A stretch of DNA of 46,856 nucleotides from a phage. The notes beneath the pieces are model-generated. The model ran no database searches. It saw only the letters and a list, made by a program, of their open reading frames with translations, and was not told the origin of the DNA. Positions 4,336-46,340 of this stretch are shown piece by piece. The stretch lies in the sequence record PZ379178.1. One strand, 5' to 3'. The stretch's first letter is position 1. Every line of letters begins with the position of its first letter. Both the position numbers and the translations under genes were made by a program.

Positions 4336-5472
4336 ATGGCAGCAGCAAAGATTACCAACGAGCAATTAATCGAAGAACTGAAAAACGGCCTTACTAACAA
4401 GGCGATTGCAGAGAAGTATGGTATGAACATTCGTAACGTTGAGATTCGTCGCAGTAAGTTGGCTAAGAGTGGCTTGTTCGGGCATGGTAACGAAGGCATT
4501 AAGAAGCTAGTACCGGACGGATACTTGGTAAAAGGCACTTCGACCATGATTGATGCGGATGGGAATGAGAAGCTGCGTTGGGTTAAGACTTCAATTGATA
4601 ATGAGCGCCTTGAGATTCTGCTTGAGCAAGCACGAGAGGCATTTTGTTCTGACTTACCAAAGGCAGTTGCCAGTGAGTGCCCAGACATTGATTTTGATGA
4701 TGACACGATGGCTATGTATCCGGTTTTCGACCTTCACATTGGCGCAATGGCTCATAAGCATGAGTGCGGTGAAAACTACGACACTGCAACAGCAGAGAAG
4801 GTAATGAATAGCTTCTTTGATTATGCTGTAGATAAGGCTCCTAAATCAATAAATGCGACATTAGTTTTGGGGGGTGATTTTCTGCATTACGACTCTCTAG
4901 AGGCTAAAACACCAGCATCAGGACATATCTTAGACAGCGACAGTCGCTATGCTAAATTGGTTTACGTAGCAATCCGCTCAGTGCGTCGTGCGGTTTCAAG
5001 GATGCTTGAGAAGCACCAAATCATTGATATTAAAGTAATAAGTGGAAATCACGACGAAGCTGGGATGGTTTGGTTGCGTGCAGCATTGGCGGCATTCTAT
5101 GAAGACGAGGAGCGAATTACTGTCGACGTAAGCCCAGCAGCAATGCTGATGACAAGCTTCGGCTCAACATTGATTGGTTATACTCATGGTCACCAGATGC
5201 GAAAAGCTGAAACTCGACTTACAGTAATGGCTACAGACTTTCGTAAACTATTCGGTAACAGCGAATATGTCTATACACACTCGGGCCACTGGCATAGTCA
5301 GAAAATTACAGAAACAAACCTGGGTATCGATGAAGTTCATGGTCAGCTTGGCGCGCCAGATGCCTATTCAGCTAATGGAGGATGGCGCTCAATGCGTCAA
5401 GCAGCGGTAATCGTTTACCATAAGCGTTTTGGTGAGGTTGGTCGATTTATTTGTCGCCCTGAGATGTTCTAA
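4336..5472 (+). CDS. Calcineurin-like metallophosphoesterase with N-terminal HTH-like region
   Basis: Motifs DLHIG, GGDFLHYD, GNHDE, GHQM, GHWH in order typical of metallophosphoesterases; N-terminal LTNKAIAEKYGMNIRNVEIRR resembles a helix-turn-helix. Confidence 0.6.
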   Translation: MAAAKITNEQLIEELKNGLTNKAIAEKYGMNIRNVEIRRSKLAKSGLFGHGNEGIKKLVPDGYLVKGTSTMIDADGNEKLRWVKTSIDNERLEILLEQAREAFCSDLPKAVASECPDIDFDDDTMAMYPVFDLHIGAMAHKHECGENYDTATAEKVMNSFFDYAVDKAPKSINATLVLGGDFLHYDSLEAKTPASGHILDSDSRYAKLVYVAIRSVRRAVSRMLEKHQIIDIKVISGNHDEAGMVWLRAALAAFYEDEERITVDVSPAAMLMTSFGSTLIGYTHGHQMRKAETRLTVMATDFRKLFGNSEYVYTHSGHWHSQKITETNLGIDEVHGQLGAPDAYSANGGWRSMRQAAVIVYHKRFGEVGRFICRPEMF

Positions 5473-17281: not shown

Positions 17282-18901
17282 ATGCTTCACAACTGGATTC
17301 TTAATTGGCGTGATGGTTGGATTGGTGAAATTATGGCTAATTTAGTTTGGGAGGAAATGACGCCAGCAGAAAAGATGGCGGTTAAGGCGATATCCACTCA
17401 TAGCTTCGAGGGTTTCTTACGAGTGTGGTTCCAGCTTACCCAGGGAGAGCGATACATACCTAACTGGCACCATAGATACCTTTGCAGAATTATCGATGAG
17501 ATTATTGCTGGTGAGCGTAAGGACACAATCATTAACATCGCTCCTGGCAGTGGGAAGACAGAGATTGCCTCAATTCACTTCCCAGCCTACTCAATGGTTA
17601 AGTTGAGAAAGGTAAGGAACCTGAATATATCGTATGCTGACTCACTGGTTAAGCGTAACTCCAAGCGTGTGCGCGACTTAATTAAGTCTGTTGAGTTCCA
17701 GGAGTTGTTCCCATGTAAGTTTGGTACGTGTAAGGATGATGAGCTACAGGTCCTGGATGACTATGGCAAGGTCAGGTTTGAGTCAATCTCTAAAGCCACT
17801 GGCGGCCAAATTACAGGCGCGAGGGGTGGATATATAACCGATTCGTATAGTGGTGCGGTACTGTTAGATGATTTTGACAAACCAGCCGACATGCTTTCTG
17901 CTGTTTTTCGCGCTAACAATCACGTGATGCTAAAGAATACAATACGCTCTCGTAGGGCGAGCTCCGTAAAAGGAAAGGCGACGCCGATTATCTCTATCCA
18001 ACAGCGCCTTCATGTGAACGATAGTACGTGGTTCATGATGAATGGCGGTATGGGTATTAGCTTCGACTTGATTAAAATACCGGCGCTCGTAACTGAGGAT
18101 TACGTCGACACGCTTCCTGACTGGATTAAGCAGCAATTCATTGATGACGTTCTATCAAGCGAATATATTGAGCGTGATGGTGTTAGGTACTATAGCTATT
18201 TCCCTGGCAAGGAATCTGTTCACGACCTAGTTGCAATGTGGGATTCTGATAGCTATACATTCCTTAGCCAGTATCAGCAAGAACCAGTAGCACTTGGCGG
18301 CAACCTGATTAACGTAGACTGGCTTCAACGCATTAGCGACACTCTGCGACCGCCAGCTAAGTACGATTACAGGTTTATGGTCCTTGATACTGCGATGACA
18401 ACCAAAAGTTACAGCGACTTTAGCGTCATGCAGCTATGGGGTTATAAGGATGGGAAGATTTATCTGCTTGACCAGCGGCGCGGTAAATTTGAAGCTCCTG
18501 AGCTCGAGGCTGAGTTATTGGATTTCGAGAAGATGGCTAGGGCATCCAATCAGATAGATGGCATCCTTCGTAAAATCATCATCGAGAAGAAAGCCTCTGG
18601 TATTGGCCTGATTCAATCAGCCGGAAGGGTTATGCGAACGCCTATCGAGCCGTACGTTCCGGATAACGATAAGCTGACTCGCGTAATGAGTGCATTGCCG
18701 CAGATTAAAGCTGGTAACGTAATCCTTCCGGAGTCTGCTACTTGGCTTAATGGCTTGCTAACGGAGATTGCGGCATTCACGGCAGATGATTCACATGTTC
18801 ACGATGACCAGATAGACTGTTTGACAATGGCTGTCAACCTGGTACTGAACATTGCAGAAGACCCTAAATCGAGGATGATGCGCCTCGCTGGCATCAAATA
18901 G
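17282..18901 (+). CDS. Terminase large subunit
   Basis: 539 aa; Walker A NIAPGSGKTE near N-terminus, acidic nuclease-type C-terminal half; position before portal; alternative start ATG 17336. Confidence 0.8.
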   Translation: MLHNWILNWRDGWIGEIMANLVWEEMTPAEKMAVKAISTHSFEGFLRVWFQLTQGERYIPNWHHRYLCRIIDEIIAGERKDTIINIAPGSGKTEIASIHFPAYSMVKLRKVRNLNISYADSLVKRNSKRVRDLIKSVEFQELFPCKFGTCKDDELQVLDDYGKVRFESISKATGGQITGARGGYITDSYSGAVLLDDFDKPADMLSAVFRANNHVMLKNTIRSRRASSVKGKATPIISIQQRLHVNDSTWFMMNGGMGISFDLIKIPALVTEDYVDTLPDWIKQQFIDDVLSSEYIERDGVRYYSYFPGKESVHDLVAMWDSDSYTFLSQYQQEPVALGGNLINVDWLQRISDTLRPPAKYDYRFMVLDTAMTTKSYSDFSVMQLWGYKDGKIYLLDQRRGKFEAPELEAELLDFEKMARASNQIDGILRKIIIEKKASGIGLIQSAGRVMRTPIEPYVPDNDKLTRVMSALPQIKAGNVILPESATWLNGLLTEIAAFTADDSHVHDDQIDCLTMAVNLVLNIAEDPKSRMMRLAGIK

Positions 18902-18970: not shown

Positions 18971-19324
18971 ATGAAAGCAGTATTTAAAGGGTATAAAAAA
19001 GCTGGTTATTTTGATTTTACCGTTGGTAAGATTTATGACTTATCAAGAACGCCTGGAAGTAATAATGAATACGTCAAAGTTAAGGATGATAAAGGCTATT
19101 TGGGCGTAATTAATCTTAGTGTTTATGATTTCGAAGTTATAGAGCCTACCGATTTTGTCGTTAAAGGTGATAATTTTAAAGTTGAAAAGGCTGGGATTAA
19201 ATACTTCATCAACAAAGACATAGTAACTAAAGAGGCATTTTATGAAGTCAGAAGGGAGGTTCGCCAGTTAACACTTAATGGAGTGAAAACATCATCAATC
19301 AAGTTCGAAGTAAAATTCGAGTAA
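18971..19324 (+). CDS. Hypothetical Lys-rich protein (moron-like insert between terminase and portal)
   Basis: 117-aa ORF with own promoter box (18899) and own terminator (19347-19368); AT-rich codon usage. Confidence 0.5.
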   Translation: MKAVFKGYKKAGYFDFTVGKIYDLSRTPGSNNEYVKVKDDKGYLGVINLSVYDFEVIEPTDFVVKGDNFKVEKAGIKYFINKDIVTKEAFYEVRREVRQLTLNGVKTSSIKFEVKFE

Positions 19325-24141: not shown

Positions 24142-24167
24142 GCCCTCTACGGAGGGCTTTTTTTCGC
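24142..24167 (+). terminator. Rho-independent terminator after capsid gene
   Basis: GCCCTC-TACG-GAGGGC followed by T7. Confidence 0.65.
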
Positions 24168-24228: not shown

Positions 24229-24474
24229 ATGATTCGTTTAGAACACACTGGCGCGTGCATGATTACCTTTCGTGGAGTGAATTACATGCCAGGTGAATTC
24301 ATTGAGGTTGAGGAAATCAACGCTGGACTTAAAAGCCTCATTGCAGAAGGTCGCTTGCAGGTTGATGGAGACGCGAAGGCAACCAAAGAGATTATCGCAG
24401 AGGTTAAATCAAAATCTAAGCGCAAAGAACCGAAGACCATTGACGAAGCTCAGACTGGTCAGGAATATAAATAA
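24229..24474 (+). CDS. Hypothetical protein
   Basis: 81-aa ORF between terminators after capsid gene; AAAGGAGAG SD. Confidence 0.4.
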   Translation: MIRLEHTGACMITFRGVNYMPGEFIEVEEINAGLKSLIAEGRLQVDGDAKATKEIIAEVKSKSKRKEPKTIDEAQTGQEYK

Positions 24475-24515
24475 CCAAATGGGCGCTTAGGCGTCCGTTT
24501 TTGTATGGAGGTTTT

Positions 24516-25709: not shown

Positions 25710-26107
25710 TGCAGTATGAATTATCTTTGGCGGCAAGGAGGTTTGTGACTGATTTGGTTAAAACGTTTCCAGTCAGGTATCCAATCTCCTATGAAAACGT
25801 AGCCTTTTCCCCTCCAAGAAATGGCGGCATGTGGCTGAAGTACGATTATACCGAGGCTGACACAGTAACCTATAGCTTGAGTCGCAAGTGTAAGTATTAT
25901 GTTGGCATGGTTCAGGTATCTGTCTTTTTCTCACCAGGTGATGGTGTTGATAGTGCGAGGAGAATTGCTAATCAATTGGCAGAATCAATGCTTGATGGTA
26001 CAATGCTTGACACAGGCTACATTTATGAGGGCGGAGTAGTTCACCCGGTAGTGAAGTCAAAATCTGGCTGGTTTATTCCAGTTCGTTTCTATGTTCGTCT
26101 TGACTAA
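25709..26107 (+). CDS. Tail terminator-like protein (putative)
   Basis: 132-aa ORF preceding major tail gene. Confidence 0.4.
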   Translation: MQYELSLAARRFVTDLVKTFPVRYPISYENVAFSPPRNGGMWLKYDYTEADTVTYSLSRKCKYYVGMVQVSVFFSPGDGVDSARRIANQLAESMLDGTMLDTGYIYEGGVVHPVVKSKSGWFIPVRFYVRLD

Positions 26108-26117
26108 AAGGTTGCAA

Positions 26118-26603
26118 ATGAAAGAGTTCTTAAATTCTCTTTACGATTATCGCGATGGTCAAATCTTTCATAAAGGAGGTTCAAAGCCATGTGGGTATGG
26201 AAAGCCTAACGGATACATTCAAACTTACGTCTCAAAGACTGGTAAGAAGTATGTTCACAGGATTATTTGGACAATGCATAATGGAGACATCCCAGAAGGC
26301 ATGCAAATTGACCATTTAAATGGCAATAGGAGCGACAACCGCATTGAGAATTTAAGGTGCGCATCAGTAACTGAAAATAGAAGAAATTCAGGAACGAAAT
26401 ATAGGTATCGTAGATTCCCTGGTGTTAATGGTGTAAACTACAATAAGCGCGATAATCTTTGGCATGCAATGATTTCTGATAATGGCGTAGCTAAGAGCCT
26501 TGGTCATTACAAGTCATTTGTTAGTGCATGTGAAGCTAGAATTATCGCAGAAGTAAATCTTGGATACCACGTAAATCACGCGATGCGTGATAGCGTATAT
26601 TAA
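26118..26603 (+). CDS. HNH homing endonuclease (HNH_3-like)
   Basis: MQIDHLNGNRSDNRIENLR motif typical of phage HNH endonucleases; inserted between tail terminator and major tail genes; start 26118 preferred over 26091. Confidence 0.55.
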   Translation: MKEFLNSLYDYRDGQIFHKGGSKPCGYGKPNGYIQTYVSKTGKKYVHRIIWTMHNGDIPEGMQIDHLNGNRSDNRIENLRCASVTENRRNSGTKYRYRRFPGVNGVNYNKRDNLWHAMISDNGVAKSLGHYKSFVSACEARIIAEVNLGYHVNHAMRDSVY

Positions 26604-26612
26604 CTTAACTCT

Positions 26613-27290
26613 TTGAATTGGAGGTGTATTATTGCCCATCTCAGCAATGGCACTCAGGTCTTCGTAGAAGGCACTAGGGGAGCTGCTATCGACGTAACCG
26701 CAATTTCCAACGCGGTTAATCCTGTTTTAACTTTGTCCAGCGTTGCAGATATTGCACGCGGTGACTACCTGTTGTTTACCAGCTCCGCTTCAACTCTGCT
26801 GGCTGATAAGCAAGTTCGCGTTACCGCAGTGTCTGGTTCAACCGTAACTGTTGAAGGTATTGACACCTCCAGCACCACCAAGTTCCCGGCCGGTTTAACT
26901 GGTGAAGTGGTTAAGATTCTTAGCTGGTTTGAGGTTCCTTGCGTTCAGGACGTATCCACTGACGGCGGCGAACAGCAGTTCGTTAACTTCCAGTGTTTAT
27001 CCGATGACCGTGAGCAACAGATTCCAACTTATAAATCTGCGGTAACTAATACCTACACTTTCGCGCACGAATACACCAACCCGATATATCCGATTCTGCG
27101 TAACTATGACGAAGCTGGTACTGTTGTTGCTATCCGTCTGTTCGTACCTCGCGCTAGTGAGATGCGTCTTCAGTCTGGCACTATCGCTTTCAACGACACG
27201 CCGAGCATTGGTGTTAACGAAATCGAAACGGTATCCATTGCGGTATCTATTCGCGGCAGGCTGAGTTCTGTAGCTTCTGAACTGGCATAA
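26613..27290 (+). CDS. Major tail protein (putative)
   Basis: 225 aa, position between connector genes and tail chaperones, followed by strong terminator; start may be ATG 26646. Confidence 0.55.
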   Translation: MNWRCIIAHLSNGTQVFVEGTRGAAIDVTAISNAVNPVLTLSSVADIARGDYLLFTSSASTLLADKQVRVTAVSGSTVTVEGIDTSSTTKFPAGLTGEVVKILSWFEVPCVQDVSTDGGEQQFVNFQCLSDDREQQIPTYKSAVTNTYTFAHEYTNPIYPILRNYDEAGTVVAIRLFVPRASEMRLQSGTIAFNDTPSIGVNEIETVSIAVSIRGRLSSVASELA

Positions 27291-27297
27291 AAATTAA

Positions 27298-27317
27298 CCC
27301 TCTTCGGAGGGTTTTTT
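27298..27317 (+). terminator. Rho-independent terminator after major tail gene
   Basis: CCCTC-TTCG-GAGGG followed by T6. Confidence 0.65.
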
Positions 27318-27322
27318 ATTGA

Positions 27323-27398
27323 TAGCACTTTTTGTTAAAGGCTAAGTCGCGGATTGCTGTATAGTTCATTCATCGAAAAGAAATGAGAGATTAATGAA
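27323..27398 (+). promoter_or_regulatory. Box-hairpin-leader cassette, variant box
   Basis: Box TAGCACTTTTTGTTAAA 27323-27339, TATAGT, leader CATCGAAAAGAAATGAGAG from 27371; drives moron 27399. Confidence 0.5.
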
Positions 27399-27647
27399 AT
27401 GAACAACGTTAAAAATATCATCAAACTTGCTGCTGCTCTTGGTGCTTTCTACCTGGCAATTCAGATTGTCAACCCAACTGGTGGCGCAACCGCTAACTCT
27501 GATGCAATAAAGTATGAACATGAATTTAATAGTGCATATTCTCATTGTGAAAAAGTAGCTGGCGATAAGACAAATCAGATTCTGCATTATGGTCGCGAGG
27601 TGTGCACCGAAGTTGCTCACAACATTGTAAAAAACGAATCAAAGTAA
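27399..27647 (+). CDS. Small protein with N-terminal signal/TM segment (moron-like)
   Basis: 82 aa; N-terminal IIKLAAALGAFYLAIQIV; own promoter box 27323; sits between major tail and chaperone genes. Confidence 0.45.
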   Translation: MNNVKNIIKLAAALGAFYLAIQIVNPTGGATANSDAIKYEHEFNSAYSHCEKVAGDKTNQILHYGREVCTEVAHNIVKNESK

Positions 27648-27682
27648 TATAATCATTCAACACAAACAAAGGAGATAACGAG

Positions 27683-27997
27683 ATGGCAAAATTTAAACTT
27701 TCACTTAAGGCGCTGCCTGACTTTAAACTTCCGGTTAAGTTTCAGTTAGCGAATGGTGAAGATGCAGAGGTGGTACTAACAGTTAAGCACAAGAAATCAT
27801 CTGAACTTCAGGAGATTCTTAATCGTGAAAACTTCAGCACTAAAGAATTGATTAACGAAATCTGCTCTGACTGGGATTTAGAAGAACCATTTAACGATGA
27901 GAACGTCGATGAGTTTGCAAACCTATTCCCAGGTGCAGTTCCATCATTGATGGATAGCTACATGAAAGCGCTGGCTGGGCAGCGAGTAAAAAACTAA
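27683..27997 (+). CDS. Tail assembly chaperone (gpG-like)
   Basis: 104-aa acidic ORF immediately upstream of tape measure region; slippery heptamer at its 3-prime end. Confidence 0.55.
   Translation: MAKFKLSLKALPDFKLPVKFQLANGEDAEVVLTVKHKKSSELQEILNRENFSTKELINEICSDWDLEEPFNDENVDEFANLFPGAVPSLMDSYMKALAGQRVKN
27988..27994 (+). other. -1 programmed ribosomal frameshift slippery site A_AAA_AAC
   Basis: Heptamer in phase with gpG-like frame 3 codons before its stop; -1 frame open from 27958 to 28311. Confidence 0.5.
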
Positions 27998-28311
27998 AAC
28001 GCGCAGTATACTTACAATACCAGTCACCACCAACGGATGCCGAACTCGAAGCTATCGGAATGAAACGTTCCGATTATGAAGGTGATGAGCCTGAAGAGTT
28101 ATACTTCGATGAAACAATGATGCAAAGCTGGGATGTGTACTGTGCCATGTCAACTCAATGGCGAGTAGGGGCTTGCGGTGCCACAGGCCTTGATTATAAT
28201 TGCCTTCCATTCTTGTTCAAAGTCTATAAAATAGATGATGACGAAATGGTACTTAACGACATCAGAATACTTGAGGCTAAAGCCTTAGATATGATGAACG
28301 CCAAGAAATAG
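27988..28311 (+). CDS. Tail assembly chaperone frameshift extension (gpGT-like, via -1 frameshift)
   Basis: -1 frame opens only 10 codons before slippery A_AAA_AAC (27988-27994) and runs to 28311, ending just before tape measure gene. Confidence 0.45.
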   Translation, partial: KKLKRAVYLQYQSPPTDAELEAIGMKRSDYEGDEPEELYFDETMMQSWDVYCAMSTQWRVGACGATGLDYNCLPFLFKVYKIDDDEMVLNDIRILEAKALDMMNAKK

Positions 28312-28335
28312 CCATCCTTCGGGGTGGCTTTTTTA
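28311..28335 (+). terminator. Terminator/attenuator hairpin before tape measure gene
   Basis: GCCATCC-TTC-GGGGTGGC (imperfect) followed by T6. Confidence 0.45.
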
Positions 28336-28348
28336 TTATGGAGACAAC

Positions 28349-31330
28349 ATGGCAACTAACGAAATTGCTGGTATCACGCTAGCCGTCGACGTAGCTCAGG
28401 TCGATAAGGGTACGCAATCCTTACAGAAATTCAGGCAAGCAAACGAGCAAGCTGCAACAGGCATTAATAGCTTCGTCAACGCCGAACTTGTAGCCAAGAC
28501 TCAAGCAAGGGACACTGCAAGGCAGCTTGAGGAGCAGCGCAAATCTTTCGCATCACTTCAGCAAGCCATAGACCCAACCGCTGCTAAATTCCTGAAGTTG
28601 CAGAAAGCAGCAACAGATTTGGACAAAGCATTTGAATCCGGGATAGTTCCTGATGATGAATTCTTCAGGCTTGGCTCTGTTATTGAAACTCAAATCAATA
28701 AGCTAAACAGGTCTAAAGCCGCTCTTAGCGAAGAAGGCAGGGCTGCACTACAGGCATCAATAGATAAAGAGAAAGCAACAACAGCAGCACAAAAGTTCAT
28801 TCAATCTCTTGAGAACGAGGCGAATGCAGCAAGCCTGACAAGGACTGAACTTCTTCAGCTTAAGGCTGCTCAGCTAGGAGTTAGTGACCAGGCTGCACCG
28901 ATTATCGACAGGATTGGAAAGGCTGCCGAGGCATCTGCGGTACAATTGCAGAAGCAAAGCTCCGCTTTTGTTAAGTCTGGGCTTAGTGCCGGTCAATACA
29001 AGCAAGCAATTCGACAGCTTCCAGCGCAGATTACAGATATCGGAACCTCTCTAGCTGGTGGTATCCCAATCTGGCTAATTGCAATTCAGCAGGGTGGGCA
29101 GATTAAGGATAGCTTTGGTGGTATTGCTAACACCGCAAGGTTCGCACTGGCAGCCATTAACCCATTAACGGCAGTTGTTGGGACTTTGGGCTTGGCCCTC
29201 GGCGCTCTTGGTGTTGCTGCTTATCAGGCTGACAAGAACACTCGCGGACTAGCATCAACGATAACATTGGTTGGCAACTCAACTATCACGTCGACAGCGC
29301 AGATAAATCAGGTTGTTGATGGAATTGAGAGTTCAACACTAGCCACGCGCGGACTTATCCAGGAGATAGCTAACAGCCTGGTAGCAAACGGTAATCTGAC
29401 TCTTACGCAGATAGATAAGATAACCAAGGCGACAGCACAATGGGCAACTGTAACATCAACAGACTCGAAAACTATTCTTGGATACTTTGATCAGATTACA
29501 AAGGACCCAATTCAAGGTCTGATTGCACTCGATAAGCAGTTCAACTTCCTTCAGTCTGGGCAATTGAAATACATTGAGAATATCAGGAAGACGGCTGGAG
29601 AAACAGAGGCTGTAACCGCAGCTACTGAGCTATTCGCTAACGTTATGGAAAACAGGCTAGCAGACGTAGCACTAAGCCTTAACCCTCTTGAGAGCGCATG
29701 GAATAGCTTCAGGAAGTTTGTAAGTGAGATTTGGGATGATATAAGCAAAAGGACGCTTGGGGCGCTTAACTTAATAACTGACGTTGTTGCTGGGACTATT
29801 GAGCAGATAAGGTCGTTAATAAACTCCGGTGATATCCTATTGGGCGAGTTTGCAATAGCAGCAACCAAGACACTTCAGTCAATACCTGGACTTGGCGATT
29901 TAGGCAATGAAGCAATCGCTGAGCAGCAAAAGATTGTTGATGCAGCTAAGAAGCAAAATGAGGAGTTAGCAAAAAGCATAGCTGAGCGAGATGCGAGAAT
30001 CAGGAAGGGTGAGCTTGGTTATGTCGAGAACAACAATAACACCAACCTTAGCGGAAATAATGCATCAACCGATAAGGAGTTTGCAGCAAGGAAGAAGGCT
30101 CTTGCCGATGAGTATGATGCGATAAAGAAAGCAGGGAGTGAGAGGAAAAAGGCTGTAAAAGAAGAAAGGGATTTAACTTTATCTTATGAATCTGGCGTTC
30201 TTGCACTTCAGGCTCAGTTAAAGGTCTTACAAGAGCACAGAACGATAAATGATGTAATAAGCAATGAAAGAAAGCAGTTATTCCAGGAAGAAGCGAAGTT
30301 TGCAATACTTGAACAAAGACAAGCGGATGGTACGCTTACAAAATCACAGGCTAAGCTACTTGCGCAGAAGAATATCATTCTTGAACAGGCTAAACAGAAG
30401 GCTGAACTTGGTGACCAGATTGTGCTTCAGGAGAGGTCAAACAAGTTACTTGATGACAACCTTAAGAAGACAATACAGATTACCAATGAGGCGAAGAATG
30501 TTTCACTTGCTGCGGGTCTATCAGAAAGGGAGCGGCAAAGGGCAGGAGAACTTCAGGCGCTAGAGTCCAATCAGGTAAACAAGGGTGGCTCTGTAGATGA
30601 TGTTGATTTCCAAAATCTGCTGGAAGCAAGAAAAGAATACTACAGGCAGGAAGATAACCTAAGGTCAGACTGGCAAGCTGGTGTAACTTCAACGCTTGCT
30701 GACTTAACTGAGAAGTACACTGACTTCAACCAAATTGCTAAGGATTTGACTGTCGCAGCTTTTGATGGAATTACCGACCAGATTACAAACCTTGTAACCA
30801 CTGGAGAGACTAATTTCAGGGAGTTCACGGCAAACATACTGAAAATGATTGCGAAAATTGCAACTCAGCTACTTTTGGTAAAGGCTATTGAATCTACAAT
30901 TAAGAGCTTTGGTGGTGACACTGGAGCAGGTAGTGCCTTTGAGTCAATAAAGTCAGCAATTGGCTTTGCTGGCGGCGGTTATACTGGTGATGGTGGGAAG
31001 TATCAACCTGCCGGAACTGTGCACCGCGGTGAGTTTGTATTCACAAAAGAAGCAACAAGCAGAATTGGCGTTAAGAATCTGTATAAGCTAATGCGAGGTT
31101 ATGCAAATGGCGGTGCTGTTGGTGGGCCTTCTGGATATGCTAATGGTGGAGTTGTTGGCGGTACTAATGTCAGTGTTGGTGGTGTGACGGTTAACGTAAG
31201 CTCTGGATTTAGTAGCGGTAATGATGCTAAGGCGATAGAATCTGGAGTCAAGGTTATCGTTGCTGAGGAAATCAGCAAGTCATTCCAGCAGGGCGGAAGA
31301 GCCTTTGCTTATCTGAGGGGTTACAACTAA
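28349..31330 (+). CDS. Tail tape measure protein
   Basis: 993 aa, largely alpha-helical/coiled-coil composition, Gly-rich C-terminus, follows G/GT chaperone pair. Confidence 0.85.
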   Translation: MATNEIAGITLAVDVAQVDKGTQSLQKFRQANEQAATGINSFVNAELVAKTQARDTARQLEEQRKSFASLQQAIDPTAAKFLKLQKAATDLDKAFESGIVPDDEFFRLGSVIETQINKLNRSKAALSEEGRAALQASIDKEKATTAAQKFIQSLENEANAASLTRTELLQLKAAQLGVSDQAAPIIDRIGKAAEASAVQLQKQSSAFVKSGLSAGQYKQAIRQLPAQITDIGTSLAGGIPIWLIAIQQGGQIKDSFGGIANTARFALAAINPLTAVVGTLGLALGALGVAAYQADKNTRGLASTITLVGNSTITSTAQINQVVDGIESSTLATRGLIQEIANSLVANGNLTLTQIDKITKATAQWATVTSTDSKTILGYFDQITKDPIQGLIALDKQFNFLQSGQLKYIENIRKTAGETEAVTAATELFANVMENRLADVALSLNPLESAWNSFRKFVSEIWDDISKRTLGALNLITDVVAGTIEQIRSLINSGDILLGEFAIAATKTLQSIPGLGDLGNEAIAEQQKIVDAAKKQNEELAKSIAERDARIRKGELGYVENNNNTNLSGNNASTDKEFAARKKALADEYDAIKKAGSERKKAVKEERDLTLSYESGVLALQAQLKVLQEHRTINDVISNERKQLFQEEAKFAILEQRQADGTLTKSQAKLLAQKNIILEQAKQKAELGDQIVLQERSNKLLDDNLKKTIQITNEAKNVSLAAGLSERERQRAGELQALESNQVNKGGSVDDVDFQNLLEARKEYYRQEDNLRSDWQAGVTSTLADLTEKYTDFNQIAKDLTVAAFDGITDQITNLVTTGETNFREFTANILKMIAKIATQLLLVKAIESTIKSFGGDTGAGSAFESIKSAIGFAGGGYTGDGGKYQPAGTVHRGEFVFTKEATSRIGVKNLYKLMRGYANGGAVGGPSGYANGGVVGGTNVSVGGVTVNVSSGFSSGNDAKAIESGVKVIVAEEISKSFQQGGRAFAYLRGYN

Positions 31331-37330: not shown

Positions 37331-38302
37331 TTAGTAGAAGTTTGGTATGAATGGTAGAGCCATTGATATGTTTGTGTCGAATGGGAATTGGGCTCCCGTC
37401 TGCGTTGAGTAGTTCCCTATCACAGTGCCTGGAACTGCCCTTACGGCACCACCAGACATGCATATTCCCTTGTACCTTAAGTTGTTATACCCTCCAGTAA
37501 CTCTTGTTGTAGCGCCGCACCTGAGCAGTGGGAAGAACCCTCCATTTATTGACTGGAAACCATTGGTTATTTGTATAAAGCCACCAAGCACGAACGGTCG
37601 CCTGACGCTTGAAAAAACAATCTGTCCAGAACTATTAGACATTGTGAGTCCTGGGCCAGCTACTGGAGGGTCATTCCTGAATATCACTAACTGTACGTAA
37701 GTACTTGCTGCAACGTCATCTATGCCGCTGTAGTTTATGTTGCGGCACCAAATTGTATTACCGTCGCTCTCCAGAGAAACGTTTGGGTTATCCCATTTAC
37801 CAAATGGAATCCCACTGACTGGTAGTGAGGCGGCGCCGTTAACCTGTATTCCACCAACCCATGCCGCAGACATTAACCGCGAATTGCTTGAAATTGCCAA
37901 AAAGTCAGTTGAGTTCTCAACCAGTATTCCTGGGCTTGATGAAGACGAGGCTGGGAGTATTTCAAAGCAATTTCCAGCAAAGTCAATTATACGACCTCTT
38001 GCGCCATTGAAGTCACTAAGCGTTATCCTGCCAGTTCCGTCATTTACCTTCTGGAACCCGTTCATATAATAAACTTCAGGTACAACATCATAAGCGTCAA
38101 CGTGCACAGCCTTTGTTGGAAGGCAGAATGCTGTTGAGCCTGTGGACATGGTTAAACCAAAATCCCATGATGATGCTGGCGTCGAAAGTCCATTGGTATT
38201 TATTGAGCCAGTCACAGCGGGCGCTCTTAATCCTGCCGTTATTTCCATAGGTGGCCTTCCGTCGTTGAGGTCTATCAATATACCCTGTGGCATTATTTCC
38301 AC
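37331..38302 (-). CDS. Hypothetical Gly/Ser/Asn-rich protein, cotranscribed with lipoprotein gene
   Basis: 323-aa ORF overlapping 3-prime end of 38293..38538 by 10 nt; convergent with J-like gene at bidirectional terminator. Confidence 0.5.
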
Positions 38303-38538
38303 TCCTTAGACCCGTGATCTGCAACTGAACCGCCATAACCTCCACCAGCCTTGCTCTCAATACCAGCGTAGCGCACATCAACTTCACCAGCCGGTACAAT
38401 CACACCATCTTTCCATTTAGCCACGCACACGCCGTTTGCTTGCGTTGCACACCAACCGTCTGGTCGCGGACTAGAAGAGCAACCTACCATCATGATTGCT
38501 GCTGCGGCGATGATTGAAAGTTTGATTAAGTTAGTCAT
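38293..38538 (-). CDS. Small lipoprotein, Cor/Llp-like superinfection-exclusion candidate
   Basis: 81 aa; signal peptide with lipobox MVGC, short mature domain; own promoter box (38606-38622); located next to tail fiber locus. Confidence 0.4.
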
Positions 38539-41041: not shown

Positions 41042-41111
41042 CACGAATTGCTAAAGACAAAATTAACTGGTGGGGTATCATTACCCCATCGAAACGAAAG
41101 AGAGATGTGGA
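41039..41111 (+). promoter_or_regulatory. Box-hairpin-leader cassette
   Basis: Box TAGCACGAATTGCTAAA 41039-41055, hairpin GGGGTA/TACCCC, leader CATCGAAACGAAAGAGAG from 41087. Confidence 0.5.
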
Positions 41112-41762
41112 ATGAAAACTTCTGAGCAAAACAAGCAAGTATTGAAGGCGTTATTCGAGGCTAAATCAAAGTTTGCTAAGGCTGAAAAGTCTAAGCAGAA
41201 CTCACACCTCAAGAATAAGTACGCTACTTTAGATGATGTTTTAGCAGCTGTAGAGCCAGGATTGGCTGATAGCGGACTGGTGATGTTTCAGTCGATGATT
41301 GATGATGATGTAAGCACTCGTATTAAGGTTGAAACAACAGTTTACCATGCAGAATCTGGAGAGTGGGTTAGTTTCCTGACCATAGTCCCAATCAGTAAGC
41401 AAGATGCTCAAGGTTATGGGTCATCACTTACATACGCTCGCCGTTACGCAATCACAGCGGCGTTAGGTTTAAGCCAGGCAGATGATGATGGTCAGTTAGC
41501 AGTTAAAGGCATCAACTCATTCAAGAAAGACTTGGCTAAGTGCAGTACTCTTGATGACCTCCGTGATGTTTACAAAGAGGCGAAGCAGTCACTTGATTCA
41601 GCCGGCTGGTTAGTGCTTGAGCCTCACATTATCGAGCGCAAGGTAGAGATTCAGGCCAATGCAACTAGCGGCTTTAACCCAGCAAAACCTAAGCAGGTTG
41701 CACAAAAGCCTGTTCAAGAAGAAAAAGTTGAAGTACAATCTCAAGAAATCGATACATTCTAA
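41112..41762 (+). CDS. Single-strand annealing protein, Erf-family-like
   Basis: KNKYATLDDVLAAV ... SSLTYARRYAITAALGL resembles conserved ERF core; ATG 41112 is 73 nt downstream of promoter box 41039. Confidence 0.55.
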   Translation: MKTSEQNKQVLKALFEAKSKFAKAEKSKQNSHLKNKYATLDDVLAAVEPGLADSGLVMFQSMIDDDVSTRIKVETTVYHAESGEWVSFLTIVPISKQDAQGYGSSLTYARRYAITAALGLSQADDDGQLAVKGINSFKKDLAKCSTLDDLRDVYKEAKQSLDSAGWLVLEPHIIERKVEIQANATSGFNPAKPKQVAQKPVQEEKVEVQSQEIDTF

Positions 41763-45792: not shown

Positions 45793-45860
45793 AGTTACCT
45801 CCATAAACAATAAAGGCACTATACACAATGTATAGCGCCACTGTTTATCAATTCGTGCTA
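45793..45860 (-). promoter_or_regulatory. Box-hairpin-leader cassette (minus orientation)
   Basis: Reverse-complement box TAGCACGAATTGATAAA (45844-45860), palindrome CTATACATTGTGTATAG, GGAGG SD; precedes primase ATG 45792. Confidence 0.5.
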
Positions 45861-46340
45861 TTTCCCTTGCTCTTTATCTTTTCGTGCTGCTTCGTTAGCG
45901 GCCTTAATCTTGCGCCATGAGCGACACTCTGGTTTAGTTGCTAGCTCAGCCTCAGTAACAACACGCAGCATATGACGCTTCTTGCAACGTAGAGTTAGCG
46001 GTTTCCCGTTACCGTCGAATTGCAGATCTGGTCGGCAGAATGTAGCGCGAAAACCTTCTCCATTTCGCTTATAGTAGTTGTGCGACAACTGAGCGCCACG
46101 CGCAGAAATCATCCCGCGATCAAACCATTGCTCTACAGTCTGGTGAGATACATTTAACTGCTTGGCGATATTGGCCTTCGTGCCGTAGAAATCAAGAACC
46201 ATCTCCAGACGAGCTCGTAGCCCAGCCTTTACTTCATCTTTCAATACGTAGTAGCCTGACGGTCGTTTGCGCTGTTTCTTGTCTTGCGTGCGGATGGTTC
46301 CGTTATTGCCGTTGATAGTTCGCTTGTCAATTTCACACAT
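45858..46340 (-). CDS. HTH-type DNA-binding protein (putative regulator)
   Basis: 160 aa, basic; TKANIAKQLNVSHQTVEQW resembles helix-turn-helix. Confidence 0.45.
   Translation of the reverse strand: MCEIDKRTINGNNGTIRTQDKKQRKRPSGYYVLKDEVKAGLRARLEMVLDFYGTKANIAKQLNVSHQTVEQWFDRGMISARGAQLSHNYYKRNGEGFRATFCRPDLQFDGNGKPLTLRCKKRHMLRVVTEAELATKPECRSWRKIKAANEAARKDKEQGK

Follow-up and report, generated by a model that had tools for sequence, protein, structure and literature searches.

A predicted exported protein encoded in an exchangeable slot of the tail module of a T1-like phage

Why does the tail module of a T1-like phage carry a small gene whose predicted product leaves the cytoplasm? The question is raised by a phage DNA stretch of 46,856 nucleotides (nt), sequence record PZ379178.1, which in its full length is called the window below. 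A first-pass annotation of the window, made without database searches, had placed an open reading frame (ORF) of 82 amino acids (aa) between the major tail and chaperone genes. This location was confirmed: the reading frame, here called ORF82 (27399-27647, + strand), is flanked by the major tail (tube) protein gene (PF08813) and a tail assembly chaperone gene (PF08748). It had been read as a 'moron', expressed from its own promoter and coding for a secreted or membrane protein with a host-envelope or exclusion function. We find the interpretation as an exported, non-virion protein of this kind reasonable, and it gains some support from the comparisons given below. More specifically, we propose, with a probability of roughly 0.4, that ORF82 is a receptor-independent superinfection exclusion or immunity protein which would act on tape-measure-mediated injection.

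Based on megablast and on the annotation of the best matches, the window was placed in the family Drexlerviridae, subfamily Braunvirinae, as a T1-like Escherichia coli phage. It is Christensenvirus-like, with approximately 93% identity to phages ES, CY1, Rao1 and TR2 across 26.6-28.4 kb.

Accessory genes in the slot between the tube and chaperone genes

The ORF82 family was found by tblastn in 82 phage records. Every locus inspected belonged to Braunvirinae or a close relative, and the gene was always situated in the slot between the tube and chaperone genes. The same slot is empty in T1, in tuinn and KarlJaspers (both Tempevirinae), in SegesCirculi and in Webervirus; of the two Rogunavirinae examined, Rogunavirus C119 also has an empty slot and Phagiculus has a DNA methyltransferase there. 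Rtp (rtp34), AugustePiccard (bas01_0018), RobRod40 and TR1 (UVD31782) carry an envelope-targeted, uncharacterised lipoprotein in the slot, which shares with ORF82 the same upstream terminator, box cassette with -10 hexamer, and leader. Unlike ORF82, to which it is unrelated, it has 126-128 aa and an LAGC or LTGC lipobox with Asn at +2 (MKAIIA...L(A/T)GC-N). MM01 encodes an Rtp34-type lipoprotein too, at a position that was not read. In CY1-type phages a further peptide of 46 aa is encoded 5' of the ORF82 homologue (CY1 locus 2275-2415, between the box cassette and the homologue); it has two predicted transmembrane (TM) helices, MILIGMLTAFFYYATGLTFWVSLGAAIGTYFVSALLALIVRALRNR, is absent from the window, and is a third envelope-directed cargo of the slot.

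The DNA of the window and that of TR1 are 93% identical up to 27386, i.e. 13 nt 5' of the ORF82 ATG, unrelated across the cargo, and aligned again from 27644, at the ORF82 stop codon. The synteny in relatives, which the first-pass annotation had suggested as a check, is that near-identical flanks can carry another envelope protein, and that the slot is empty in other relatives. Slot cargos also move, as a distant homologue of the Rtp34-type lipoprotein is located elsewhere in one Tempevirinae genome. These comparisons strongly support ORF82 as a lineage-restricted accessory gene in a swappable cargo slot, and the empty slots of T1, Tempevirinae, Webervirus and Rogunavirus C119 support that it is dispensable for the tail.

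The designation as a moron, taken in the Juhala/Hendrix sense as given in PMC3594210, holds in part. ORF82 is an extra gene missing at the same place in relatives, but it has no terminator of its own and its GC content differs little: 39.4% (33.7% at third codon positions, GC3) compared with 44.1% for the window and 40.3% for the adjoining chaperone gene. Being expressed from a prophage would not apply, because Braunvirinae relatives are described as virulent, as is the case for phage MSK (PMC8421802).

The substitution pattern was used for evaluating ORF82 as a coding sequence. In nine ungapped homologues, 34, 26 and 62 variable sites fall on codon positions 1, 2 and 3, respectively, and the pairwise ratio of nonsynonymous to synonymous substitution rates (dN/dS) ranges from 0.05 to 0.32. 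This ratio, together with the excess at the third position, indicates a genuine gene under purifying selection. The ORF82 frame also has the top synonymous fraction of codon differences, 0.42. An antisense ORF (27366..27620, 84 aa) is open in most relatives, but phage ES retains just 57 codons of it, and its frame scores a synonymous fraction of 0.35; owing to the truncation and the lower score it was treated as a shadow of the + frame. ORF82 evolves faster than its neighbour genes, yet stays constrained: in the comparison of the window with EC3a, dN amounts to 0.37 for ORF82, 0.55 for its mature part and 0.20 for the chaperone gene.

Predicted export and structure of the ORF82 protein

Both the N-terminal hydrophobic segment and the two cysteines noted in the first-pass annotation are present in the translated sequence. 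The N-terminus reads MNNVKNIIK-LAAALGAFYLAIQIV-NPTGGATA/NS, where '/' marks the possible cleavage site. The hydrophobic stretch L10-V24 comprises 15 uncharged residues with a Kyte-Doolittle mean of 2.08, and is followed by a Pro/Gly break (N25-P26-T27-G28-G29) and by A30-T31-A32 before N33; A32 is invariant and N33 nearly invariant. ORF82 therefore has the features of a Sec signal peptide for signal peptidase I, namely a positive n-region, an uncharged h-region, a helix breaker and small residues at -3 and -1. The -3 residue is Glu in two homologues, P0004 and ACG-M12, and for this reason the exact cleavage site is uncertain (after G29 or after A32); cleavage probably takes place around residues 29-32. 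Whether the protein is cleaved or not, the charges on either side of the hydrophobic stretch predict an N-in/C-out orientation.

A published prediction on a relative agrees with this. In phage MSK only two genes were positive by SignalP 4.1, MSK_000011 and a cor-like lipoprotein, and a TMHMM call was also published for MSK_000011 (PMC8421802). From the gene order and numbering, in which MSK_000010 is the tube protein and MSK_000014 a tape measure of 992 aa (PMC8421802), and from a reading of the MSK locus, we infer that MSK_000011 is the ORF82 homologue, 57% identical to it. The signal-peptide features, the positive-inside topology, the two invariant cysteines and this SignalP prediction bear out the description as a secreted or membrane protein. 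They strongly support that the ORF82 product enters the Sec pathway N-in/C-out, with its helical domain predicted to be periplasmic.

The mature part has a mass of 5.7 kDa and an isoelectric point of 6.0. C50 and C69 are the only cysteines of ORF82, and both are kept in all 15 homologues compared, the most distant of which has 48% identity; Y39, F43, G55, K57, Q60 and G65 are also invariant. An AlphaFold2 model consists of a hydrophobic helix (residues 2-24) and a hairpin of two helices (30-54 and 57-81). The confidence is moderate, with a mean predicted local distance difference test score (pLDDT) of 67.7 and values of 73-81 for residues 41-80. A pair of invariant cysteines that is not accompanied by further conserved metal ligands is in keeping with an oxidising compartment. 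A metal site was considered and dropped, as H49 and H74 are not conserved, and so was a lipoprotein, as a lipobox is missing from ORF82, its first Cys is residue 50, and it matches neither PF24052 nor another Pfam family.

Searches in different databases returned the family itself. ORF82 is found in PHROGs as phrog_22925 only (function unknown), a word-indexed search of 5.8 billion proteins gave 8 clusters, all from the ORF82 family, and a full HMMER profile search of 1.84 billion representatives gave one cluster, that of ORF82. No Pfam family, YebO included, matched at E <= 0.1, and there was no match in NCBIfam or of the sequence profile in PDB. Foldseek with the AlphaFold2 model gave best E-values of 1.1 (PDB) and 0.17 (BFVD), none below 0.1. 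No paper mentioning rtp34, bas02_0014, bas03_0018 or Ec3a_29 was found. Neither was virion proteomics covering the ORF82 protein found in the literature: the MSK paper assigned bands from sodium dodecyl sulphate polyacrylamide gel electrophoresis by calculated mass only (PMC8421802), and the ACG-M12 paper contains no virion proteomics covering the homologue.

Cargo type, tape measure and possible functions

Accessory proteins of this kind are familiar from phages, and the ORF82 family is an uncharacterised one among them; the less ordinary part is a cargo type matched to the tape-measure module. The cargo was compared with three other properties of the phages: the receptor, the chaperone gene and the tape measure. 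JeanPiccard and AugustePiccard both use LptD as receptor (PMC8594841); despite this, JeanPiccard carries ORF82 and AugustePiccard the lipoprotein. IME253 carries ORF82 and has FepA as receptor (PMC8594841). There are two chaperone types, 70% identical to each other, and each is found with both cargos: the chaperones of the window and TR1 are 100% identical, and those of EC3a/JeanPiccard are 98-99% identical to that of AugustePiccard.

The tape measure gives a different picture. JeanPiccard and AugustePiccard have tail tube proteins with 98% identity and tape measures with 92-98% identity over most of residues 1-250 and 88-100% from about residue 700, but only 16-22% over about 300-600, where the lipoprotein type is about 70 residues shorter. 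The short module of TR1 is 97% identical to that of AugustePiccard, in a different genus background, and the window and TR1 differ in both the cargo and the tape-measure module. The lipoprotein gene was found in five of five phages having the short Rtp-type module at >90% identity, whereas the ORF82 phages examined have a tape measure of about 992 aa with the long module. This is suggestive of a cargo type following the tape-measure central module, and not the receptor or the chaperone allele.

We therefore favour a function directed at the tape measure, as stated at the outset. The exported ORF82 domain would work after adsorption, in the periplasm or at the inner membrane, and would block or neutralise the step in which a superinfecting phage crosses the periplasm and inner membrane by means of its tape measure. 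The exclusion or immunity would be matched to the central module of the phage's own tape measure. It may form a second layer, complementing a receptor-blocking lipoprotein of the Cor/Rtp45 type encoded at 38293..38538. A blocker of the outer membrane receptor was itself considered for ORF82, and was rejected because of the spread of receptors (LptD, FepA) and the presence of this separate PF24052 gene in the window.

Several points weigh against exclusion at the tape measure. No experimental datum was found for any member of the ORF82 family, and Pfam, NCBIfam, PDB and Foldseek (PDB/BFVD) gave neither homology nor fold similarity to known exclusion proteins. In the AlphaFold2 hairpin C50 and C69 are out of register, so that a disulfide within the chain is no more than a possibility. 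The association between cargo and tape measure consists of two recombinant backgrounds and five lipoprotein phages only, in genes that are linked; linkage combined with homogenisation of the chaperone gene could yield it without functional coupling. Furthermore, tight co-evolution is disfavoured by TR1, whose lipoprotein shares only 31% identity with Rtp34 in spite of 97% identity between the tape-measure modules, and the long module occurs in other Drexlerviridae subfamilies without any cargo. A more far-reaching version is doubtful in our opinion. Here the slot cargo, ORF82 or Rtp34-type, and the periplasm-traversing central module of the phage's own tape measure would be a matched pair for tape-measure-specific self-exclusion or immunity in a virulent phage, with the alleles exchanged as cassettes between the promoter/leader arm and the chaperone gene.

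Known systems offer partial parallels. HK97 gp15, the nearest analogue of the proposed function, is an inner-membrane protein of the tail operon, and confers receptor-independent exclusion set by the tail region of the incoming phage (PMC3594210). Like the predicted ORF82 protein, it is a small envelope protein encoded near chaperone and tape-measure genes, and the ORF82 cargo type tracks the tape-measure module. The gp15 gene differs in its location between the chaperone and tape-measure genes, ORF82 being placed between the tube and chaperone genes. It is also transcribed from the prophage, with a promoter and a terminator that belong to it alone, whereas ORF82 has no terminator and occurs in a phage group described as virulent. 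Furthermore, ORF82 matches neither YebO nor another Pfam family. Spackle (Sp) and Imm of the virulent phage T4 are small exported or membrane proteins blocking a post-adsorption step of the superinfecting phage. Sp is comparable to ORF82 in size and in its Sec-type N-terminus, but ORF82 has no sequence or fold match to Sp, Imm or RI, and Sp targets the tail lysozyme, while a lysozyme domain was looked for in the window tape measure and was absent. Cor, Llp and Rtp45 are small envelope-targeted proteins of T1- and T5-like phages, and the window has one of them at 38293..38538. ORF82 differs from this group in having no lipobox and no match to PF24052 (the Rtp45 type), and in being located far from the receptor-binding-protein locus, in phages with differing receptors. 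The genes at 37331..38302 and 38293..38538 make up a host-recognition and superinfection-exclusion pair of the Rtp44/Rtp45 type; the mechanism of Rtp45 on LptDE has been solved (PMC12685063).

Four other functions were weighed against exclusion at the tape measure. The exported domain could instead bind a periplasmic or inner-membrane protein of the host (a stress sensor, a protease or a membrane-associated defence system), making ORF82 a host-envelope modulator or counter-defence factor. The export features fit this equally well, the fast evolution of ORF82 and above all of its mature part suits a conflict interface, and in Phagiculus the slot is occupied by a DNA methyltransferase, a kind of cargo typical of counter-defence. 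Such a role nevertheless leaves the match of cargo and tape measure across identical chaperone genes unexplained, and no similarity to known anti-defence or host-binding families was seen in Pfam, NCBIfam or BFVD; we regard it as unlikely. An antiholin-type regulator of lysis timing is a good deal less probable. T4 RI has a short hydrophobic segment and a small helical periplasmic domain, and ORF82 resembles it in size and layout, with an Ala/Gly-rich segment (LAAALGAF); a tethered or released periplasmic domain might then modulate a pinholin, signal-anchor-release endolysin or spanin system. However, the lysis genes of Rtp (rtp63-65) are more than 24 kb from the slot, T1 has homologues of holin, endolysin and rtp65 but an empty slot, the h-region of the EC3a type (LAAVLVAFYAVVQIV) exceeds the hydrophobicity expected of a typical releasable anchor, and no sequence or fold match was obtained (Pfam, Foldseek PDB).

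The position inside the tail module, with apparent co-transcription with the chaperone genes, might point to a tail assembly factor or minor virion protein, in which case the hydrophobic N-terminus would not be an export signal. This is very improbable: most Drexlerviridae with homologous tails have an empty slot, the lipoprotein replaces ORF82 between flanking genes that are 98-100% identical, virion assembly is cytoplasmic, and signal-peptide features and invariant cysteines are present. Hardly any credence is given to a functionless spacer kept for the sigma-70-like promoter of the chaperone gene at its 3'-end, even though this element (TTGTAA-17-TATAAT, 27625-27653) is kept in the ORF82 clade, since purifying selection extends along the whole of ORF82 and the invariant Cys, Gly and aromatic residues are far from the promoter.

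If injection is blocked according to tape-measure type, T1-like phages sharing a module would exclude one another regardless of receptor, a point to consider when therapeutic cocktails are designed. ORF82 would then also offer a way of dissecting genetically how siphophage DNA crosses the periplasm and inner membrane, a step that is poorly understood. If it has no exclusion activity, it is merely another small exported phage ORFan. Whatever ORF82 does, T1-like genomes naturally tolerate a payload in this slot, which could serve phage engineering; its borders are the terminator, promoter and leader on the tube-gene side and the ribosome-binding site of the chaperone gene on the opposite side.

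Promoter cassette and neighbouring genes

The features of the locus are listed in Table 1. As stated in the first-pass annotation, ORF82 follows the terminator of the major tail gene, the stem of which (27296-27313) has a predicted energy of -11.1 kcal/mol (z = -3.0). It is unchanged in 10 relatives, and T1 has a terminator at the equivalent place. An Rfam scan of 27100-27800 gave no credible match.

Table 1. Coordinates of the features described in the window.
Feature	Position	Strand	Remarks
HNH endonuclease gene	26091..26603		homing endonuclease, PF13392; inserted immediately 5' of the tube gene
Major tail (tube) protein gene	26613..27290	+	PF08813, E = 2e-67; PHROG 584
Intrinsic terminator of the major tail gene	27296..27320	+	7-bp stem 27296-27313, UUCG loop, T-run
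Promoter 'box' ATAGCACTTTTTGTTAAA	27322-27339	+	nine bases past the terminator stem
Palindromic core of the box, TAGCA-N5-TGTTA	27323-27337	+	centre about -42 from the inferred start site
-10-like hexamer TATAGT	27360-27365	+	22 nt past the box; no -35 hexamer at 16-18 nt
Leader motif CATCGAAAAGA (consensus CATCGAAACGA)	27371..27381	+	followed by Shine-Dalgarno GAGAG
ORF82	27399..27647	+	ATG start, TAA stop, 82 aa
Codons 1-32, predicted Sec signal peptide or N-in signal anchor	27399..27494	+	n-region K5/K9, h-region L10-V24, c-region NPTGGATA
Codons 33-82 and stop, predicted periplasmic helical hairpin	27495..27647	+	50 residues; dN/dS about 0.1-0.3
Sigma-70-like promoter TTGTAA-17-TATAAT	27625..27653	+	10/12 matches; spans the last ORF82 codons and stop, directed at the chaperone gene
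Tail assembly chaperone gene	27683..27997	+	PF08748
-1 frameshift extension of the chaperone	28060..28311	+	PF08809 (DUF1799); PHROG 17368 covers both parts
Tape measure protein gene	28349..31330	+	
Tape-measure central module, co-varying with slot cargo	29216..30238	+	about aa 290-630
DUF6453 protein gene, receptor-binding-protein position	37331..38302	-	3' of the J-like gene
PF24052 exclusion lipoprotein gene	38293..38538	-	81 aa, MMVGC lipobox, E = 2e-40
Box sites (18 in total), first part	904, 3134, 4205(-), 5474, 6561, 10012(-), 10792(-), 11412(-), 13169		
Box sites, remainder	13852, 18899, 27323, 38608(-), 39366(-), 41039, 44803, 45846(-), 46354		

The variant box cassette that had been described upstream of ORF82 was recovered. 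ATAGCACTTTTTGTTAAA recurs well above chance, with 8 matches in the window at <=3 mismatches where 0.09 are expected, and it is kept in relatives, while the spacer of ~14 nt after it varies. The core TAGCA-N5-TGCTA has 18 matches in the window (2.2 expected) and 19 in phage Rtp, and the full palindrome is TAGCAC-N3-TTGCTA. In 16 of the 18 cases a TAnnnT hexamer follows 21-23 nt on (mode 22), 14 of these hexamers matching TATAAT at 5-6 of the six positions, and the box orientation agrees with the local direction of transcription. At the hexamer upstream of ORF82, TGTATAGTT is invariant in the alignment of relatives. Eight cassettes have a CATCGAAACGA-like leader 5 nt past the hexamer and then a ribosome-binding site, which for ORF82 is GAGAG at 27385-27389, 9 nt 5' of the ATG.

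The cassette was found by repeat analysis only; a standard sigma-70 scan between the terminator and the ATG detected no promoter. With 22 nt separating it from the -10 hexamer, the TTGCTA half of the box is too distant to serve as a normal -35, and a dyad centred near -42 points to a promoter class that depends on an activator. The cassette thus appears to be an activator-assisted (class II-like) promoter type used genome-wide. Boxes precede the polynucleotide kinase gene, small ORFs of the early region, the gene at 41070..41762, the gene after the large terminase gene, the ORF starting at about 46438 (the helicase in Rtp, by position) and the ORF82 slot.

Between 27314 and 28168 no terminator was seen, the next good one being at 28310-28329, and from this we infer a transcript shared by ORF82 and the chaperone genes. 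In the lipoprotein-type relatives no promoter other than the box cassette is visible ahead of the chaperone genes. Since ORF82 has no terminator and the lipoprotein-type phages no other chaperone promoter, the cassette would restart transcription of the tail operon beyond the tube-gene terminator rather than being reserved for the cargo. The claim that ORF82 is expressed from its own promoter therefore needs modification: a conserved promoter-like cassette is indeed located upstream, but it is of a common phage-wide type with 18 copies and would also serve the chaperone genes. All ORF82-type relatives keep the sigma-70-like promoter of 27625..27653, in the form TTGCAA-17-TAGAAT or TACAAT, and its equivalent is annotated as a promoter in EC3a; the lipoprotein-type relatives lack it.

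Box cassettes were also seen in other arrangements. The methyltransferase of Phagiculus (locus 547-1248) lies behind one (474-546), with the tube-gene terminator hairpin inside the 22-nt spacer between box and hexamer. Where the slot is empty, an inverted box is found just 5' of the chaperone ribosome-binding site in T1 (locus 4836-4850), tuinn (1271-1285) and KarlJaspers (1272-1286); the TAnnnT hexamer is 22 nt away on the minus strand, and transcription from such a promoter would run antisense into the tube-gene terminator. Within the structural module just one further box cassette exists, at 18899; it precedes a gene for 117 aa (18971..19324; PHROG 14592, 'virion structural protein') located between those for the large terminase and the portal, and Rtp has the same arrangement (box 8426, rtp22). 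A candidate for the box-binding regulator is the 160-aa protein encoded at 45858..46340 (-), which has a weak match to a Cro-like helix-turn-helix (PF14549, E = 6e-5) and boxes at both gene ends (45846, 46354). It is the positional counterpart of rtp52, which is similar to T1 gp23.

In the tube gene, the position of the ATG of the relatives (MAHLSNG...) reads ATT at 26631, with a good GGAGG before it, and the sole in-frame alternative is TTG at 26613, which has no Shine-Dalgarno sequence. ATT is either a rare AUU start, a sign of a shifted start, or a sequencing error. The chaperone gene has a slippery heptamer of the canonical -1 type, A_AAA_AAC (27988-27994), just 5' of its stop codon, and the -1 frame is open into 28060..28311, giving a fusion of 209 aa similar to lambda G/GT. 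Finally, an ORF of 81 aa (24229..24474; PHROG 2716, function unknown) lies 3' of the major capsid gene and is probably what the first-pass annotation counted as its first moron. By eye it seems to be flanked by terminator-like hairpins at 24143-24162 and about 24477-24503, and ST46 of T1 is likewise flanked by terminators.

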